NCBI GenBank assembly: GCA_964632045.1
Contig: CAZWBB010000004.1
Span: 18,615 to 82,614, forward strand
Source: an uncultured Methanosarcinales archaeon
GTDB lineage: Archaea; Nanobdellota; Nanobdellia; Woesearchaeales; GW2011-AR9
Length of the DNA stretch: 64,000 bases
Direction: 5' to 3'
The notes under the pieces are model-generated. The model was not told the DNA's origin. It searched no databases and was given only the letters and a program-made list of their open reading frames with translations. Both the position numbers and the translations under genes were made by a program. Each line of letters opens with the position of its first letter. Within the stretch, counting starts at the first letter, position 1. This document shows positions 1-5,976 of this stretch, in pieces.

Positions 1-3000
1 AAAAGTAGGAAATTACGGAATGAGAGGGTTAGGGAACTGGAAGAGCAGGGTGTTCTGAAAAGCAAAGCACATTCGATTGTCGATCAGGAGTTAGCTGTTA
101 TGGAAGGGACTTTGGAAAAAATAGGTATTAAAGGATATGAGCCAATGAAGTATAACCCATATGATGCGGGAATAGGGGTAGGGTATGAGTCTGATGCCAA
201 AGGATTGGTGACCTTGATGAATGGCCAAGAGATAGATTTGATTTCAGGTTTTGGTTATAGGATTACTGATCAAGCAGCTATCGACAGGGGATTTTTTGAA
301 GTAGCTCCAGGTGTTGTTGTGGACGTAGTACCAACACCAGATGGGAGAGGGCATAGAGTAGTATTATTCGACCTTGATGATGCGGGTAATCCAACCATTT
401 CAAAATTTTTCGAAGAGGGGGAGGAAGGAGTAAATTTCATGACTACAGATGCACTTCGGGCAAAATATACTTTTGAAAAAAGAGCAGATAGACTAGCTTT
501 GTTGGATGAAATTGATGAGGGTGTAGTTCCCCTAAGCGCGGAAGACATGTTTGACGTAAGGTCTCTTGAATCGGGTCCAGCTCGTCCTCCTGCTACCATA
601 CCTGATAGAATTTGGGTATCTGACATTGATAATCAAGCAACGATTGATTTCCTCACTGAAAATGGTTTTGTCAACCCTGACGGCACCGTTGTATTAAGAC
701 GGCCAGAGCCAAAGGCTTCAAAAAGTCTTAAAGACCAGGTAGGTACTGATTTGGAAGGTACGATCATTGACGATCTTAACCTGTATCAGGCGACTAAGGT
801 GATGGACAGTCACGGAAATTGGTGGTATCTTAAGTTAGGGTTGGATGGTGGATTTGAGCAGAAGATTGGGACAGTATATAGCATGCGTGATACAGTACGT
901 AGACATAAAGCCATGGAGAATATCCTTCGTAATATATTCGGTTTACCCGTACCGGAAACCAGGATTCTGCGTACAGCAGACGGTCTGACTATCATGGCTT
1001 CTCCTGCGTTGGACTCTTATACCTCTTTGGAGAAAGGAGAAGTACCCGAACTTCTTGCGCAATTCGTCGCTAATAATGGTCTTGGTCCCGAAGATGCAGC
1101 AAGATTACAGCGTGAAGCAGATTTGTATACCGCGTTACATGCAAAGTTCAGGATTGGCGATGCGGAACTGGGAGTGGCTTATTTTGACGGGATACCTCAC
1201 ATTGTATCTGTCGATAATGAGGTGGCTTTGGCTGGAATGCGTGTTGGGGAGATGATAAATGTTCTGCTTCATGATTTGATGGGAGTCCGCGATGAAACTG
1301 AAGTAATATCGAATGACAGGGTATTTGGCAGCCGTAGAAAGGGGCGATATTTTGGAGAAGTTAATGAAATTGATAGAGAATTATTTGAAAGTGATTTCGC
1401 TGATCATATTGCCATGATCGGGGATCGTGTTGATGGCCCTGATGGTGCTCAGAGGATGCGCAAAGAACTACTAGATGCGGGTTATTCAAAGTCTGAGGTA
1501 GATACGCTTGTAAGAGATATTCAGGATGTTGATGTACGCCATGACTTAGAGACGATAGTAAGAGGGAACGGTGAGGCTGTAGTTTCCGCAGATGGAAAGT
1601 TACGTACTAAGAGCGATTATATTGCCTTTAGGGAAACTGATGAAGGGGATCTTCTGTTCAGGAAGCATAGAAATGAAGTGGTTGCCGAAGCTAGGCAGTT
1701 GGAAGGAGAGGCAAAAGTCAGAAAAGCGGCTGAGTTTCCCGTAGATGAGACTGGTGCCGTACAAAGAAATGTCGTTAACTCAGAGATGATGGATCCTTGT
1801 CCAATCGCTGGGAGAGCAACAGGGATGGCTATGCCTTGTGGTCTCGGTGTTTCTCCCGGTAATTTGAAAGGAAGAAGAGTAAGTATCCAATCGGTCGAAG
1901 GCGGTTCTATCAATGGTGAGTATATGGGTCAGATGGGAGATCAACTGTATCTTAGGCTAGATAATGGTAATGTGAGAGTGCTGGATACCAATCAACTGGA
2001 TATTCATAGTATGGAGGAAGTACCGCTTCCCAAACAGGACACTATGGTTGAGGTTCGCACAGCTGATGGTCCGCTAAGGGGAAAATTCCAAGGTGTTGAT
2101 GAAGAGAATGGCCTTCTATTTGTTGAGGTGAACGGTGAAGTTAGGATTTTTGATGAACAGGAAGTCGCCTTTGCCAGCCTGCGGGAGTTACCGTCCAAAT
2201 CTAAAGTGGCAGCAAAAATTGCTAAGAATCGTCTAACTGGACAGACTTATGTCGGCCAGGGGCCACGCAAGGTTGTATTTAATCCCCAGAACATCAAAAA
2301 GTCTGGCCTAGATCTTGGGGAAGGTGAAACTCTTGTCGCTATGCATATAGATGGACAGACAGGAGAGGTTCGTCTACTTGATCCAACCAGAACATCTTCC
2401 GCCTCCGTGAAGGATGGAGATATTGTTACAAAGGTTAAAGTGAATAATAGAGGAAGAATCATCGAAGTGGAGGGGACGAGAATATCTCGCGCCGGCCAGC
2501 TTGAGAAAGTTGCAGAAGGCTCGGACTTTGGGGAGTATGTGAAATCCACAGCAAGAGAATTTAATGAGGAGTTCTTTCCTTCCTCGCGTATCCCTCCGGC
2601 AAGGACATCAGACGTGGCAAATATTCAGTCGGGAAAGAGGGGATATACTGCTGTGGGTGATTTACATGGCAGTTATGATAACCTCATGGATGACCTTAAC
2701 TTTGATCCAGACAATCCTCTTATTCGAGGTGATCCAGATGATATTGACAGTTGGCAATGGACTGGTGGGGATGCTGTTATTGTTCAGTCAGGAGATATTT
2801 ATGATAGAGGTCCGGATTCTTTGGCCATCCGAGAAGCGATGAACAAGTTGGATGGTCAAGCCAGGCGGCAGGGAGGTAGGGTGGTCCGCTTGATGGGCAA
2901 CCATGAGTTGGGCTTTGTTGATGGAAGTCCATTCATATCAATGTCCGAAGTTAATGAGATTATTGAGAGCGGCAGGGATGTGAGAGCTTACATTGACATG

Positions 3001-5976
3001 GTAAGAGGTCATATTCTGGAAGATGTCAAAGAAGGAAGAATAGTTGCAGCAACAGTAGTCAACGGAGAATTATTTACACATGCTGGTGTAAGCTTCCGCA
3101 AGTTTCCGGAATTTAGGGGTTTGTCTCCGCAAGGTGTTGCGGAGGAAATCAACAGGCGTTTTGTAAGAGCGATGGAATCCGGTGATTTTTCTGACCCCAT
3201 ATTTGATATTGGTATTACCGGAAGATTGGGGGAGGAAGGAGTAGCTCAGATTAAAGCCAATCCTGCCCTTCTCGATGATCCCGAGAATATTGGGGGTGTC
3301 TTCTGGGTGCGCAGAGCTGAGACGAAGGACTTACAGGATTTCAACCCAGCCAAGCACCGTAAGCGGGGTTATGCTCAATATACCGGTCATGAGGCCAAGC
3401 GGACAAAAGACGTGCAGGGGATTGAGGTTGTTGATTTGGGCGATGATGCTTTTGGTAATCCTGTCAAGTTGGGCAACCTTGATGTTGGCAGGACCAAAGC
3501 TTACGGGGGAGGTAAAGGTAGATTATCCAGAAGCGGTGATGATGCATTTGAGAATCTTATGGACAGAGGACTTATCCGGGATGAAGGAATACCTACAACA
3601 CAACAAAGAGCTGGCGAGGGAAGCGTAGTCAATGGCGAACTGATCAATCCTGATGTGGCCCAACCGTGCGTCCGTGTTGTGGGGGGAGCGATACATGGCT
3701 TTGCCGTCGGTTGTCCGGTCGGTTATTGGGACCCGGGCGATGAATTCCCCATCACCACATTAGCAGAGGCAAGAGCAGAAAGTGTTGTAAGATCAGACCC
3801 TGCTGATGTCTCTCACCTGGTCAGTCTTGTTGGTACGGAATCTGAGAGACTGGGGGTGGATCTGCGCTGGGGGGCAGACATCGATCCAGCGGTTGTGGCG
3901 CGGATGGATCCTGAAATAAAGCAGACAATATATGAGGCCTTCCGCGCTAATCCAGAGGAAACACTACGTAAGCTTGATCCTGAACTTGTCGATGAAGTAC
4001 TTGCTGAAAGAGGGATAGACTTGTTAGATTATCTGGAAGCTGCAGAGGATTTCGTTCCTGTCCCATTGCTGGAAGATGTCCGTGAGGGTAGGGTCGCTAG
4101 AAAAGTTATCCCTGCTTCTGGTGATGAAGCTGAGCTTAGAGCTGCTATAGGTACGTTGGAAGAAGCAAGGGGAAGGGTTGCCCGTGAAGGTTTACCAAAG
4201 AGAGAAGTACAATCTGATCTGCCAATTGATGACGATCATCTTGAGGTCGAATCGTTTGCAGGATACCGGGAAAGGGTTGCCCGTGAAGGTTTGCCCGAGG
4301 TAGAAGTGTTATATGGTGAAGAGAGATTCAGGGTTGCTACATTGGATGAAGTCAGAGCTGAGCGTCAAAGACCGCAAGTAGAATTGTCTGGTTGCCCATT
4401 TATCGGGAGAGCCATCGGTGGATGTCAGGGCAGGGGGACTGTGGGGGGAGTGGCTTGTGAGAAGACGGATGGAGTTGGTTGGCGTAGGTTGGATGGTGAG
4501 GAGATTACTCTGGAGCAGGTTGTTGCATTGGAATCTACTGACAGTGGTGTTGATCTGTTTGCTGGTGGAGGAAGACTTCCTGCTGATGCTGTTGGAGGGA
4601 TTGATCCAACTGTGAGAACAGCGATTGCTGACGCTTTTAGGGATGATCCTATCAGTGTATCTGGCAAAGTCAACAACAACATTCTTGGCAAGATGGGACT
4701 TGGCGGAAGGGAAGAGTTTGAATCAGCGTTAAGGGAGCAAGGTAGGGTAGCAGCCTTGTTAGATCAAGCATTACAAGATGGCTTCTCCGTTGGTATACAT
4801 CCAGGGACAGGCGAGATTACTTCCGGAACGCGAGGTGCACAGTACATAAACGGACGTTATGGAGTAGTTGTTGATGACAGCGCAGGAATCACAACAGTTC
4901 TTTATGAGAGTGGCGGCCAGATTCATGTTGCAGAGAAAGGCATGTTCTTTGATGATTTTGATGGAAGGTCCCTGGTAAGTCGTCTAAATGATGATCCTCA
5001 AGTTCAGTCAGACTTAGAGCGAATTGCCTCGGGACTAGAGATGCGTGGGGGGAGAGAGTTGAGAAGTGATATGGGCATTATTTCAGAGATAAGAAAGATG
5101 CATGGGAGAGATGCTCCAAGATATGAGGGTTTTTTTCCTGAAGATGTGCTGGAAGAGAACAGGGAAGCCTACCGGCAACTGCGAAGGGCCATGGCGGAAG
5201 ATCCACCTGATGCAATCTTCACCATTGAAAGGGGAGGAGGATTCATTGGAGAAAGTCTTGTAGAAGGGACTGTTTTCGCAGATAAATTATCAAAAGTCCC
5301 GAAATTTCGCCCTGGAAGTACAAGGGTTGGGGTAGATGTTCCTGATTTGGATCTTCTTAGAGAGAATATTCAGAAGTCGATTGATTCTGGCTCTACCACT
5401 ATATTCATCTCTAATAGTTACGGTAGCGGGGTCTTCAATGGAGGGGATTTGAAATCTCAAGTTATTGATCCCCTACTTAGGGAAAATCCTGGAGTTAAGC
5501 TGGATCTGGAAGTAAGGGATTATGAATACTTCAGACAGAAGTTGCAGGAAAAGATTGATGCAGGAGAGACAAAGCTTGCCATTACTGATACTTATTTTGG
5601 AGGTAGGTTCTCCAGAGAATTAAGAAGTAAAGTAGTGAAGCCTTTGCTAAGAAGTAATCCGGACATTGAAATAGATATATACTGGATGAGGGAGACATTT
5701 GGATTTGAACCTCTCTCGGCGGAAGGAATGCCCACCCTCACGCCATTCCAAGGATCAATAAAACCCACTTCTCCTTACGCATCCAGAGTAGAAGTCCACG
5801 AAGCCCGTACACGAGTCGTACTGGGTGATGATATGGACCTGATTTTTGATGGTTCTGATGACCCTTTAGTAATTTTTGATTCCGAAGGAAAAGTGGAACG
5901 ATTAGTACGACCTGAGACAACATCCCGCGAAGCCCTGGTTAATCTGCTGACGGAAGGTTCAGAGCAATCTAATTAA
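1..5976 (+). CDS. Giant multidomain protein (at least 1958 aa) with a central PPP-family (calcineurin-like) Ser/Thr phosphatase domain. The reading frame stays open back to base 1, so the N-terminus probably lies upstream of the window.
   Basis: ORF 100..5976 has no in-frame stop between 1 and 99. Motifs GDLHGSYDNL, GDIYDRGPDS and GNHE (GDxHG / GDxxDRG / GNHE) appear in order around aa 850-960. An internal RVAREGLP tandem repeat lies near 4170-4300. Confidence 0.6.
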   Translation, partial: KSRKLRNERVRELEEQGVLKSKAHSIVDQELAVMEGTLEKIGIKGYEPMKYNPYDAGIGVGYESDAKGLVTLMNGQEIDLISGFGYRITDQAAIDRGFFEVAPGVVVDVVPTPDGRGHRVVLFDLDDAGNPTISKFFEEGEEGVNFMTTDALRAKYTFEKRADRLALLDEIDEGVVPLSAEDMFDVRSLESGPARPPATIPDRIWVSDIDNQATIDFLTENGFVNPDGTVVLRRPEPKASKSLKDQVGTDLEGTIIDDLNLYQATKVMDSHGNWWYLKLGLDGGFEQKIGTVYSMRDTVRRHKAMENILRNIFGLPVPETRILRTADGLTIMASPALDSYTSLEKGEVPELLAQFVANNGLGPEDAARLQREADLYTALHAKFRIGDAELGVAYFDGIPHIVSVDNEVALAGMRVGEMINVLLHDLMGVRDETEVISNDRVFGSRRKGRYFGEVNEIDRELFESDFADHIAMIGDRVDGPDGAQRMRKELLDAGYSKSEVDTLVRDIQDVDVRHDLETIVRGNGEAVVSADGKLRTKSDYIAFRETDEGDLLFRKHRNEVVAEARQLEGEAKVRKAAEFPVDETGAVQRNVVNSEMMDPCPIAGRATGMAMPCGLGVSPGNLKGRRVSIQSVEGGSINGEYMGQMGDQLYLRLDNGNVRVLDTNQLDIHSMEEVPLPKQDTMVEVRTADGPLRGKFQGVDEENGLLFVEVNGEVRIFDEQEVAFASLRELPSKSKVAAKIAKNRLTGQTYVGQGPRKVVFNPQNIKKSGLDLGEGETLVAMHIDGQTGEVRLLDPTRTSSASVKDGDIVTKVKVNNRGRIIEVEGTRISRAGQLEKVAEGSDFGEYVKSTAREFNEEFFPSSRIPPARTSDVANIQSGKRGYTAVGDLHGSYDNLMDDLNFDPDNPLIRGDPDDIDSWQWTGGDAVIVQSGDIYDRGPDSLAIREAMNKLDGQARRQGGRVVRLMGNHELGFVDGSPFISMSEVNEIIESGRDVRAYIDMVRGHILEDVKEGRIVAATVVNGELFTHAGVSFRKFPEFRGLSPQGVAEEINRRFVRAMESGDFSDPIFDIGITGRLGEEGVAQIKANPALLDDPENIGGVFWVRRAETKDLQDFNPAKHRKRGYAQYTGHEAKRTKDVQGIEVVDLGDDAFGNPVKLGNLDVGRTKAYGGGKGRLSRSGDDAFENLMDRGLIRDEGIPTTQQRAGEGSVVNGELINPDVAQPCVRVVGGAIHGFAVGCPVGYWDPGDEFPITTLAEARAESVVRSDPADVSHLVSLVGTESERLGVDLRWGADIDPAVVARMDPEIKQTIYEAFRANPEETLRKLDPELVDEVLAERGIDLLDYLEAAEDFVPVPLLEDVREGRVARKVIPASGDEAELRAAIGTLEEARGRVAREGLPKREVQSDLPIDDDHLEVESFAGYRERVAREGLPEVEVLYGEERFRVATLDEVRAERQRPQVELSGCPFIGRAIGGCQGRGTVGGVACEKTDGVGWRRLDGEEITLEQVVALESTDSGVDLFAGGGRLPADAVGGIDPTVRTAIADAFRDDPISVSGKVNNNILGKMGLGGREEFESALREQGRVAALLDQALQDGFSVGIHPGTGEITSGTRGAQYINGRYGVVVDDSAGITTVLYESGGQIHVAEKGMFFDDFDGRSLVSRLNDDPQVQSDLERIASGLEMRGGRELRSDMGIISEIRKMHGRDAPRYEGFFPEDVLEENREAYRQLRRAMAEDPPDAIFTIERGGGFIGESLVEGTVFADKLSKVPKFRPGSTRVGVDVPDLDLLRENIQKSIDSGSTTIFISNSYGSGVFNGGDLKSQVIDPLLRENPGVKLDLEVRDYEYFRQKLQEKIDAGETKLAITDTYFGGRFSRELRSKVVKPLLRSNPDIEIDIYWMRETFGFEPLSAEGMPTLTPFQGSIKPTSPYASRVEVHEARTRVVLGDDMDLIFDGSDDPLVIFDSEGKVERLVRPETTSREALVNLLTEGSEQSN

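Follow-up and report, generated by a model that had tools for sequence, protein, structure and literature searches.

Polymorphic and multi-effector toxins such as MARTX carry an export signal at the N-terminus and have a long, variable body and enzymatic modules that can be exchanged. Polyvalent proteins of phages and conjugative elements combine kinases, GNATs, ARTs and Pol-beta nucleotidyltransferases (NTases) as protein-modifying domains; they are scarce in archaea, nearly all examples longer than 1,000 amino acids (aa) are bacterial, and the main text of the study that treats them does not mention a phosphatase domain (Iyer, Burroughs, Anand, de Souza, Aravind 2017; PMC5512222). Giant membrane-anchored extracellular ('SPEARE') proteins of the Nanohaloarchaeota, which carry Ig-like/fibronectin-like domains and a VirB4/TraG-like ATPase, have been implicated in host interaction (PMC10266531). 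Here we analysed 64,000 bp of DNA from an uncultured archaeon (accession: GCA_964632045.1, contig CAZWBB010000004.1, 18,615 bp–82,614 bp of the forward strand; hereafter the window). The first 5976 bp of the window form a giant open reading frame (ORF), open at its 5′-end, that encodes a kinase-fold domain and a PPP-family phosphatase on one polypeptide and belongs to a large family of module-shuffling giant proteins. We give about an even chance to the reading that its product is exported or anchored at the cell surface, as an array of enzymes that would act on the proteins of another cell.

The SPEARE proteins and the product of the giant ORF are both giant proteins of DPANN episymbionts, and a host-interface role is presumed for the former; no sequence relationship between the two was found, and the visible 1991 aa contained no Ig-like/fibronectin-like or VirB4/TraG-like domains. 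Like polyvalent proteins, the family carries several unrelated enzymatic domains per polypeptide that are shuffled between proteins. The polyvalent-type domains LPD38 and GNAT occurred in relatives, and the kinase-like module had structural matches in large phage fusion proteins. Unlike polyvalent proteins, the giant ORF is chromosomal, belongs to a DPANN archaeon and encodes no MuF, MPTase or LPD domain, and ten complete relatives have a signal peptide or anchor. The relatives resembled polymorphic and MARTX toxins in their export signal, variable body and swappable modules, with PT-HINT and HopA1 domains found among them. Unlike in these toxins, Pfam detected no RHS, RTX, filamentous repeats or cysteine-protease processing domain in the visible protein, and there was no pre-toxin/toxin domain and no downstream immunity gene, the next gene being a convergent nucleoside hydrolase.

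Analysis of frame 1 on the plus strand revealed no stop codon from base 1 until the TAA at 5974 bp–5976 bp, an open frame of 1991 codons whose first ATG is at 100 bp (1958 aa from there); as the initial annotation had stated, the protein is longer than the part shown. Amino acids are numbered here in frame 1 from base 1, and subtracting 33 gives the numbering from the first ATG. With the regional base composition, approximately 6% of random codons would be stops and a 1991-codon open frame would arise by chance with a probability of about 3e-56. The visible protein has an isoelectric point (pI) of 4.8. The ORF and its enzymatic modules are as follows.

1 bp–5976 bp, plus strand: giant ORF; 5′-end beyond the window edge, stop TAA at 5974 bp–5976 bp
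1 bp–540 bp (aa 1–180), plus strand: M1, C-terminal two thirds of a Pol-beta NTase-like module, from the alignments of relatives
583 bp–1680 bp (aa 195–560), plus strand: M2, protein-kinase-like fold domain, from alignment, AlphaFold2 and Foldseek
901 bp–903 bp, plus strand: codon 301, AGA, encoding an Arg of the 'RRHK' helix that is conserved within the kinase-like domain; TGA in the ENA copy
2608 bp–3555 bp (aa 870–1185), plus strand: M5, PPP-family phosphatase, bacterial-like/Shewanella-like, from Pfam, PHROG, PDB match and motifs

The sequence of the giant ORF was also found in two other public assemblies. JGI contig Ga0118720_1008589 (L088) was 100% identical to the window between 1291 bp and 10,646 bp, and ENA scaffold SUTE22-1_SAMN10231903 scaffold_11326 (L001), assembled from the same population, covered 529 bp–6273 bp with two A-to-T differences. 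As the three assemblies were concordant over the module junctions, without indels, neither the long frame nor the junctions are peculiar to one assembly. This answers the concern, raised with the initial annotation, that frameshifts or assembly errors had created an artificial fusion, yet the corresponding region of a related genome (L083, see below) contains two genes. One of the two differences in the ENA scaffold turns codon 301 into TGA (373 bp–375 bp of that scaffold), which splits the gene call, such that the gene was called from Met305. Recoding of TGA was considered and rejected because TGA is the commonest true stop codon of the window (22 of 42 ORFs); the TGA is either a genuine nonsense allele or a read error. 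The second difference, at 2680 bp, results in N894Y, adjoining the GDLHG motif of the phosphatase.

The giant ORF is a real gene, and the window is most simply read as part of the chromosome of a Woesearchaeota-like DPANN archaeon. The 30-odd closest sequences of the RtcB encoded in the window, among GTDB species representatives, shared 72–76% identity with it and were nearly all labelled Woesearchaeota, Nanoarchaeia or Nanoarchaeota; a few had a Methanosarcinales label. A/T-rich, TATA-like sequences directly preceded many ORF starts in the window (leaderless-type), and stop-codon use was standard. With no fewer than 1991 aa, the full protein probably reaches around 3000 aa or more, since in its relatives at least 929 (g83) or 1450–1860 (P0006 and the L014 ORF) residues precede M1.

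The phosphatase module M5 contained all the motifs of the PPP signature as defined by Andreeva and Kutuzov (PMC535813), who also defined H(A/G)G and, for the bacterial type, (I/L/V)D(S/T)G. The motifs of M5 were GDLHG at aa 886 (2656 bp–2670 bp), GDIYDRG at aa 931 (2791 bp–2811 bp) and GNHE at aa 966 (2896 bp–2907 bp), followed by HAG at aa 1027, W1102-x-R, GH at aa 1129–1130 and LDVG at aa 1160. The complete signature that had been placed near residue 850 is therefore present, at aa 886 in frame-1 numbering and 33 lower when counted from the first ATG. Pfam Metallophos matched aa 884–979 (E-value 2e-6), PHROG 246 (NinI-like Ser/Thr phosphatase) matched aa 884–1042, and the best matches among solved structures were the cold-active protein-tyrosine phosphatases of Shewanella (1V73, 2Z72 and 2ZBM; E-value 6e-8, over motifs I–III).

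The conservation of these residues was assessed from an exhaustive phmmer search of aa 1–1200 against 1.84 billion cluster representatives, which returned 2176 matches at an E-value of 1e-3 or below. In an alignment of M5 to 145 of these matches, each motif residue of the giant protein was the consensus residue and the GDLHG, GDIYDRG and GNHE columns were near-invariant. The His of the HAG motif was present in 111 of 113 aligned matches. The metal-binding and catalytic motif residues were retained in the giant protein and in the 136–145 aligned relatives, so that the alignment found none of the degeneration that might have undermined the annotation, and M5 looks catalytically competent on the basis of its intact motifs.

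No SAPNY-like motif was found in M5, which has LDVG at aa 1160 instead. LDVG conforms to the (I/L/V)D(S/T)G motif, its third residue being Val; most Shewanella-like phosphatases (Shelphs) have Val or Phe there, and bacterial PPPs may be Tyr-specific or broad in specificity (PMC535813). By motif and by best PDB match, M5 is assigned to the bacterial-like, Shewanella-like PPPs: the PPP-type assignment of the initial annotation stood, with the correction that the domain is not of the conventional eukaryotic/archaeal type. M5 shares with the Shelphs (1V73/2Z72) the motifs GDxHG, GDxxDRG, GNHE, H(A/G)G and (I/L/V)D(S/T)G, including the Val. Unlike the Shelphs, which are stand-alone enzymes of approximately 300–400 aa, it forms part of a protein of at least 1991 aa; sequence identity between the two is low, with phmmer aligning only the N-terminal half. 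Lambda phosphatase and its NinI-like relatives (PHROG 246), ApaH, PrpA/B and PrpE have the PPP catalytic core in common with M5 and gave weak profile matches, with scores far below the family cut-offs (19 bits for ApaH, against a cut-off of 176); these are small single-domain proteins, unlike the giant protein. An origin of M5 in a neighbouring gene was rejected, as the adjacent stand-alone metallophosphoesterase genes were not similar to it.

Giant phosphatase-containing proteins had been described as uncommon in prokaryotes, which does not hold for this subfamily. Among the 136 listed cluster representatives matching M5, 41 were at least 1,000 aa long and 15 at least 2,000 aa, so by this top list giant carriers are usual, not exceptional, for the M5 phosphatase subfamily.

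The flanks of the phosphatase had been called unassignable. This was borne out to the extent that scans of the whole protein and of nine overlapping 300-aa segments with Pfam, NCBIfam and PHROG detected the phosphatase only; it did not hold in that kinase-like, degenerate NTase-like, repeat and C-terminal modules were found when the family modules were mapped by local alignment of the top phmmer matches. M2 was matched in P0004 and P0005 (two copies each), P0007, P0008, P0027, P0051 and P0054. An alignment of nine M2 sequences showed six invariant residues (K278, D387, E389, D405, E407 and D439), and AlphaFold2 run on this alignment gave a model with a predicted local distance difference test (pLDDT) score of 87.6 and a predicted template modelling score (pTM) of 0.88. 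Comparison of the model with the PDB by Foldseek revealed PI4K-II beta/alpha, PI4K-III beta, Fam20, PI3K, HipA and CtkA (best E-value 6e-5). Almost all of the top 50 matches were kinases, with a probability of about 1, template modelling (TM) scores of 0.3–0.4 and 8–13% identity. Mapping by secondary-structure order placed the conserved K278 on the N-lobe strand and the conserved D387 and D405 at the catalytic-loop and DFG positions. According to these models, M2 is a kinase-fold domain. It shares the overall fold of the atypical kinases PI3K/PI4K, HipA, CtkA and Fam20, and differs from them in its D-x-E loop, the TM-scores of 0.3–0.4 and the lack of a sequence-level match to any kinase family. 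No sequence-level match for M2 was found in the PDB or Pfam, including when a profile of the nine-sequence alignment was compared with the PDB. In BFVD, which contains viral models, its best Foldseek match was a phage protein with a PI3/4-kinase domain, and it also matched phage fusion proteins of 1,000–1,340 aa annotated as ADP-ribosyltransferase or portal.

M1 showed 61% identity to P0006 (2760 aa), 57% to g83 (on L083) and 37% to the L014 giant ORF, and it also matched P0009, P0042, P0044 and P0053. In seven relatives the module begins 'W-A-x-S-G-S-G ... G-D-A-D-x-L-I', with a later 'I-D-L-I', which is the G-S/D-x-D/acidic pattern of Pol-beta-type NTases. An NTase-like fold for these relatives is suggested by this motif and by a PDB profile match to the putative NTase TM1012 on the GS/DxD motif that was not significant (E-value 0.76). 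The M1 of the giant protein lacks approximately 33 residues that hold GS and DxD; the flanking 'SR' and 'LEEQGV' still align.

The remaining features of the giant protein are repeats, a C-terminal domain and three cysteine-flanked loops.

1798 bp–1839 bp, plus strand: Cys-flanked Gly/Ala loop 1, C600...C613 'DPCPIAGRATGMAMPC', between modules
1849 bp–2175 bp (aa 617–725), plus strand: two beta-rich repeats, SH3/Sm-like by eye, common to P0014 and P0036
2203 bp–2604 bp (aa 735–868), plus strand: M4, basic repeat module of approximately 130 aa, pI 9.6, also in P0045, P0014 and P0007
3667 bp–3714 bp, plus strand: Cys-flanked Gly/Ala loop 2, C1223...C1238 'QPCVRVVGGAIHGFAVGC', between modules
4154 bp–4307 bp, plus strand: two RVAREGLP-bearing copies of a diverged 33-aa unit (aa 1392 and 1425)
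4393 bp–4458 bp, plus strand: Cys-flanked Gly/Ala loop 3, C1465, C1475 and C1486, between modules
4918 bp–5973 bp (aa 1640–1991), plus strand: M7, conserved C-terminal domain, 42% identity to the C-terminus of P0045

The visible 1991 aa contain seven cysteines, all of them confined to the three loops, which are short, Gly/Ala-rich, hydrophobic and situated between modules. A loop motif of approximately D-P-C-P-h-h-G-G-A-I-h-G-x-A-P-C recurred in P0002, P0004, P0007 and P0027. A simple definition of the motif gave 11 instances, whereas shuffled sequences led to an expectation of 1.0 and to no more than 4 in any of 100 shuffles. Loop 2 was the most hydrophobic visible stretch of the protein, yet too short for a membrane span.

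The repeats at aa 617–725 matched BPL_C, an SH3-like barrel, with an E-value of 0.0014 and 18.9 bits, below the 21-bit cut-off. M4 was present in three copies in P0045 and was also found in P0014 and P0007; aa 1185–1640 had only a weak match to P0010. Between the phosphatase and the C-terminal domain the protein has a helical/repeat region. The internal RVAREGLP repeat reported previously was recovered: its DNA is a diverged 99-nucleotide unit with copies at 4154 bp–4208 bp and 4253 bp–4307 bp (76% identity over 55 nucleotides). No long internal repeats were detected in the giant protein by BLAST self-comparison or Tandem Repeats Finder. M7 contained an insertion of approximately 63 aa (aa ~1800–1862) that duplicates a 'TDTYFGGRFS' element. 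A by-eye reading of M7 as a phosphoribosyltransferase-like fold was dropped, as the two-sequence AlphaFold2 model was poor (pLDDT 43.6) and Foldseek with this model gave no significant match. Alignment of M7 by hhalign with the C-terminal module of the L014/P0008/P0053 group gave an E-value of 0.48.

The top phmmer matches were dozens of other giant proteins (1,200–7,989 aa), each with one or two modules in common with the giant protein. The family is a large pool of giant proteins that shuffle the same modules and is essentially unannotated and largely undescribed. A signal-peptide-like or anchor-like N-terminus was found in ten complete relatives (P0002, P0003, P0006, P0007, P0027, P0038, P0042, P0045, P0054 and the L014 ORF), several of which share an N-terminal module (aa ~270–800 of the L014 ORF). 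The four relatives whose gene neighbourhoods were read were all in archaeal genomes, near genes for ribosomal proteins L15e, S3Ae and S15/S13 and for Orc1/Cdc6. P0002, an archaeal protein of 3484 aa with a signal peptide, was the closest match to the M5 phosphatase (48% identity) and contained a HopA1 type III effector-family domain (aa 3084–3250) and three Cys-flanked loops. Pfam domains in 14 further giant carriers included Metallophos (5), HopA1, GNAT, LPD38, intein/PT-HINT and GGDEF. A second group of phosphatase carriers had no signal sequence, and many of its members lacked any cysteine; at least 15 cysteine-free phosphatase carriers of at least 1,000 aa were present among the matches listed. 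The one cysteine-free member whose context was read, P0011, is encoded in a 1.33-Mb genome, where its surroundings (integrase, YopX, HTH and HicA) are prophage-like. The locations of the two carriers are given here.

10,001 bp–20,455 bp of L082 (GCA_040751885.1, JBFMFP010000009.1): P0002 locus
10,001 bp–15,556 bp of L084 (CP019865.1): P0011, a cysteine-free M5 carrier of 1851 aa

The L014 ORF is a giant ORF of 2438 aa (12,707 bp–20,023 bp) in the Woesearchaeota metagenome-assembled genome (MAG) SI037_bin144, just downstream of RtcB. It encodes a signal anchor, an NTase-like module with intact GS/DxD, a kinase-like stretch 'GNYDRAAWN...FIDQG' and a C-terminal module also present in P0008 and P0053. 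A truncated giant ORF was likewise found just downstream of RtcB in another Woesearchaeota MAG (L011, 3766 bp–5031 bp).

Several other searches were negative. P0011 and the giant protein had no match in a phage database by tblastn, and PHROG profiles and the phage database revealed nothing beyond the phosphatase in the relatives. No homology of the 334-aa genes upstream of P0003 and of P0011 was found, and no other ORF of the window qualified as a member of the giant family. A word-indexed protein search with the whole giant protein matched only a near-identical copy (P0001); such searches with two ORF segments gave no match, not even to the 100% identical P0001 that contains them, so that negatives from this method are unreliable. 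A pattern-based locus search of GTDB genomes, IMG/VR and JGI metagenomes found no relatives, and absence claims from such scans are weak, as the JGI scan missed the JGI contig later recovered by exact-sequence look-up.

The gene following the giant ORF also marks its synteny with a related chromosome.

5959 bp–6843 bp, minus strand: convergent inosine-uridine nucleoside hydrolase gene; overlaps the end of the giant ORF by 18 nucleotides and is the synteny marker with L083

On Logan contig L083, which comes from a related archaeon, the convergent nucleoside hydrolase gene likewise lies downstream, and the window ORF at 9674 bp–10,447 bp has a homologue there. The region of L083 that corresponds to the giant ORF holds two genes, g83 and P0045, with two small genes of the opposite strand between them. 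The g83 product (>2034 aa, open at the contig edge) contains M1, M2 and a different C-terminal module, with at least 929 residues before M1; P0045 (1318 aa) bears a signal anchor of its own and contains M4 in three copies along with M7. The giant ORF is thus a different assembly of the same parts with an added phosphatase module, and not a simple read-through of the L083 genes.

The other neighbours in the window encode RtcB, a PHP phosphoesterase, a queuosine-salvage protein and three double AsnC-type regulators. Three genes in a row at 10,764 bp–14,729 bp (plus strand) encode the RtcB RNA ligase, a protein with winged-helix and Pol-beta NTase domains and a Ser/Thr kinase; this cluster is absent from L083. 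The Ser/Thr kinase that the initial annotation placed 7.5 kb downstream of the giant ORF is real (13,563 bp–14,729 bp, plus strand; Pkinase E-value 6e-30) and absent from L083, the one syntenic relative found; its ORF begins with TTG, and the match to the Pkinase profile sets in only at position 41. As a kinase-like partner for the phosphatase, M2 is the most relevant and is part of the same polypeptide.

By analogy with polyvalent proteins and toxins, the giant protein would be exported or anchored at the surface of the archaeon and would meet the proteins of another cell, presumably the host of the episymbiont, as an effector-like array of protein-modifying enzymes. The phosphatase would remove phosphate from Tyr, Ser or Thr of host proteins and the kinase-like domain would add phosphate to them. 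This is the reading that we prefer, with the chances about evenly balanced. Several points weigh against it. The N-terminus lies outside the window, so that a signal peptide was seen only in relatives, and g83, the closest syntenic relative, is truncated too. Pfam found no secretion-related domain in the visible 1991 aa, which also contained no transmembrane segment, and no immunity-like, secretion-system or mobile-element gene adjoins the ORF. HopA1, LPD38 and PT-HINT sit in relatives that may have only one module in common with the giant protein, and not in the protein itself. M2 could be a pseudokinase or have another activity, because the usual Asn is missing from its catalytic loop, which is D-x-E instead of D-x-x-x-x-N, and one assembly (L001) has an in-frame stop within this domain. 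M1 is a degenerate module and is probably inactive, because the segment with GS and DxD is missing. For all family members, the case is built from sequence and models.

A different, somewhat unlikely explanation is that the protein is an intracellular signalling scaffold, in which the kinase-like domain and the phosphatase would set the phosphorylation of the archaeon's own proteins, perhaps with the downstream Ser/Thr kinase. A kinase fold and an intact PPP phosphatase on one chain, the absence of a transmembrane segment from the visible part, the nearby Pkinase gene and the need of the enzyme modules for ATP and metal ions, which are normally cytoplasmic, would all agree with such a role. 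It is less easily reconciled with the N-terminal signal or anchor of ten complete relatives, including four in archaeal neighbourhoods, or with the HopA1, PT-HINT and LPD38 domains among the relatives. The modules are freely shuffled, lost or degenerated, a pattern that fits proteins of conflict or interaction better than it fits a conserved regulator, and the syntenic L083 locus lacks the downstream kinase.

We regard it as unlikely that the giant ORF encodes a polyvalent protein of a mobile element or integrated virus, which would be packaged or transferred with the DNA and act early in the recipient. The many giant cysteine-free relatives with the phosphatase module, P0011 in its prophage-like region with an integrase, the resemblance of the kinase-like fold to large phage fusion proteins and the phage-type LPD38 domain of a relative point in this direction. 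The locus itself does not: the flanking genes are housekeeping genes (nucleoside hydrolase, PHP, RtcB and queuosine salvage), no integrase, terminase, portal, capsid or conjugation gene was seen in the 64-kb window, and the region is syntenic with a related chromosome (L083). In addition, no match was found in INPHARED phages or IMG/VR, and the protein has no MuF, MPTase or LPD domain.

A more far-reaching form of the exported-array reading, which we hold to be improbable, is that DPANN archaea may use the family as a device for protein delivery, with the N-terminal anchor on the symbiont, the Cys loops at the host membrane and the enzymes passing into the host cytoplasm. The Cys-flanked Gly/Ala loops may resemble internal fusion loops and glycine-zipper peptides; they would insert themselves into the host membrane or undergo processing there, and the modules would then rewire host phosphorylation. 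If true, such a device would be an archaeal counterpart of multi-effector toxins that shares its module pool with phage polyvalent proteins.

Finally, an artefact or decaying gene, whether an assembly or frameshift fusion of two neighbours or a pseudogene, is highly improbable: the two genes of L083 with two opposite-strand genes between them, the TGA at codon 301 of the ENA assembly and the lost active-site segment of the NTase-like module would fit it, but three assemblies agree over the junctions without indels, an open frame of 1991 codons would not be expected to arise by chance, the invariant residues of the phosphatase and the kinase-like domain are all intact, and the ORF is not an end-to-end join, as g83 has its own C-terminal module and the signal anchor of P0045 is absent from the giant protein.

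Three further observations were made elsewhere in the window. Eight consecutive ORFs at 38,262 bp–53,225 bp (plus strand) each encode Cu-binding_MopE-type Cys motifs, in combination with matrixin plus FGE-sulfatase, VWA or PD40 beta-propeller domains, and look like a paralogous array of probably secreted proteins. The three double regulators are paralogues of approximately 350 aa (19,075 bp–20,154 bp, 26,955 bp–28,010 bp and 35,524 bp–36,567 bp, all minus strand), each with two AsnC-type helix-turn-helix (HTH) domains and an Lrp/AsnC ligand-binding domain in a tandem fusion. Two overlapping large ORFs at 22,184 bp–26,789 bp (plus strand; 752 and 786 aa) had no Pfam match and were unrelated to the giant family by phmmer.

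For host manipulation by DPANN episymbionts, few candidate effectors are known besides the giant surface proteins of the nanohaloarchaea. In the exported-array reading, the phosphatase and the kinase-like domain are concrete candidates that could each be expressed alone. The locus opens onto a sizeable family of giant proteins with a kinase fold, PPP phosphatase, NTase, GNAT, HopA1 and GGDEF domains, which Pfam barely annotates and which exchanges modules with giant proteins of which at least one is prophage-encoded. The finding shows that embedding in giant proteins is common for this phosphatase subfamily, and it extends the theme of the polyvalent protein to archaeal chromosomes.

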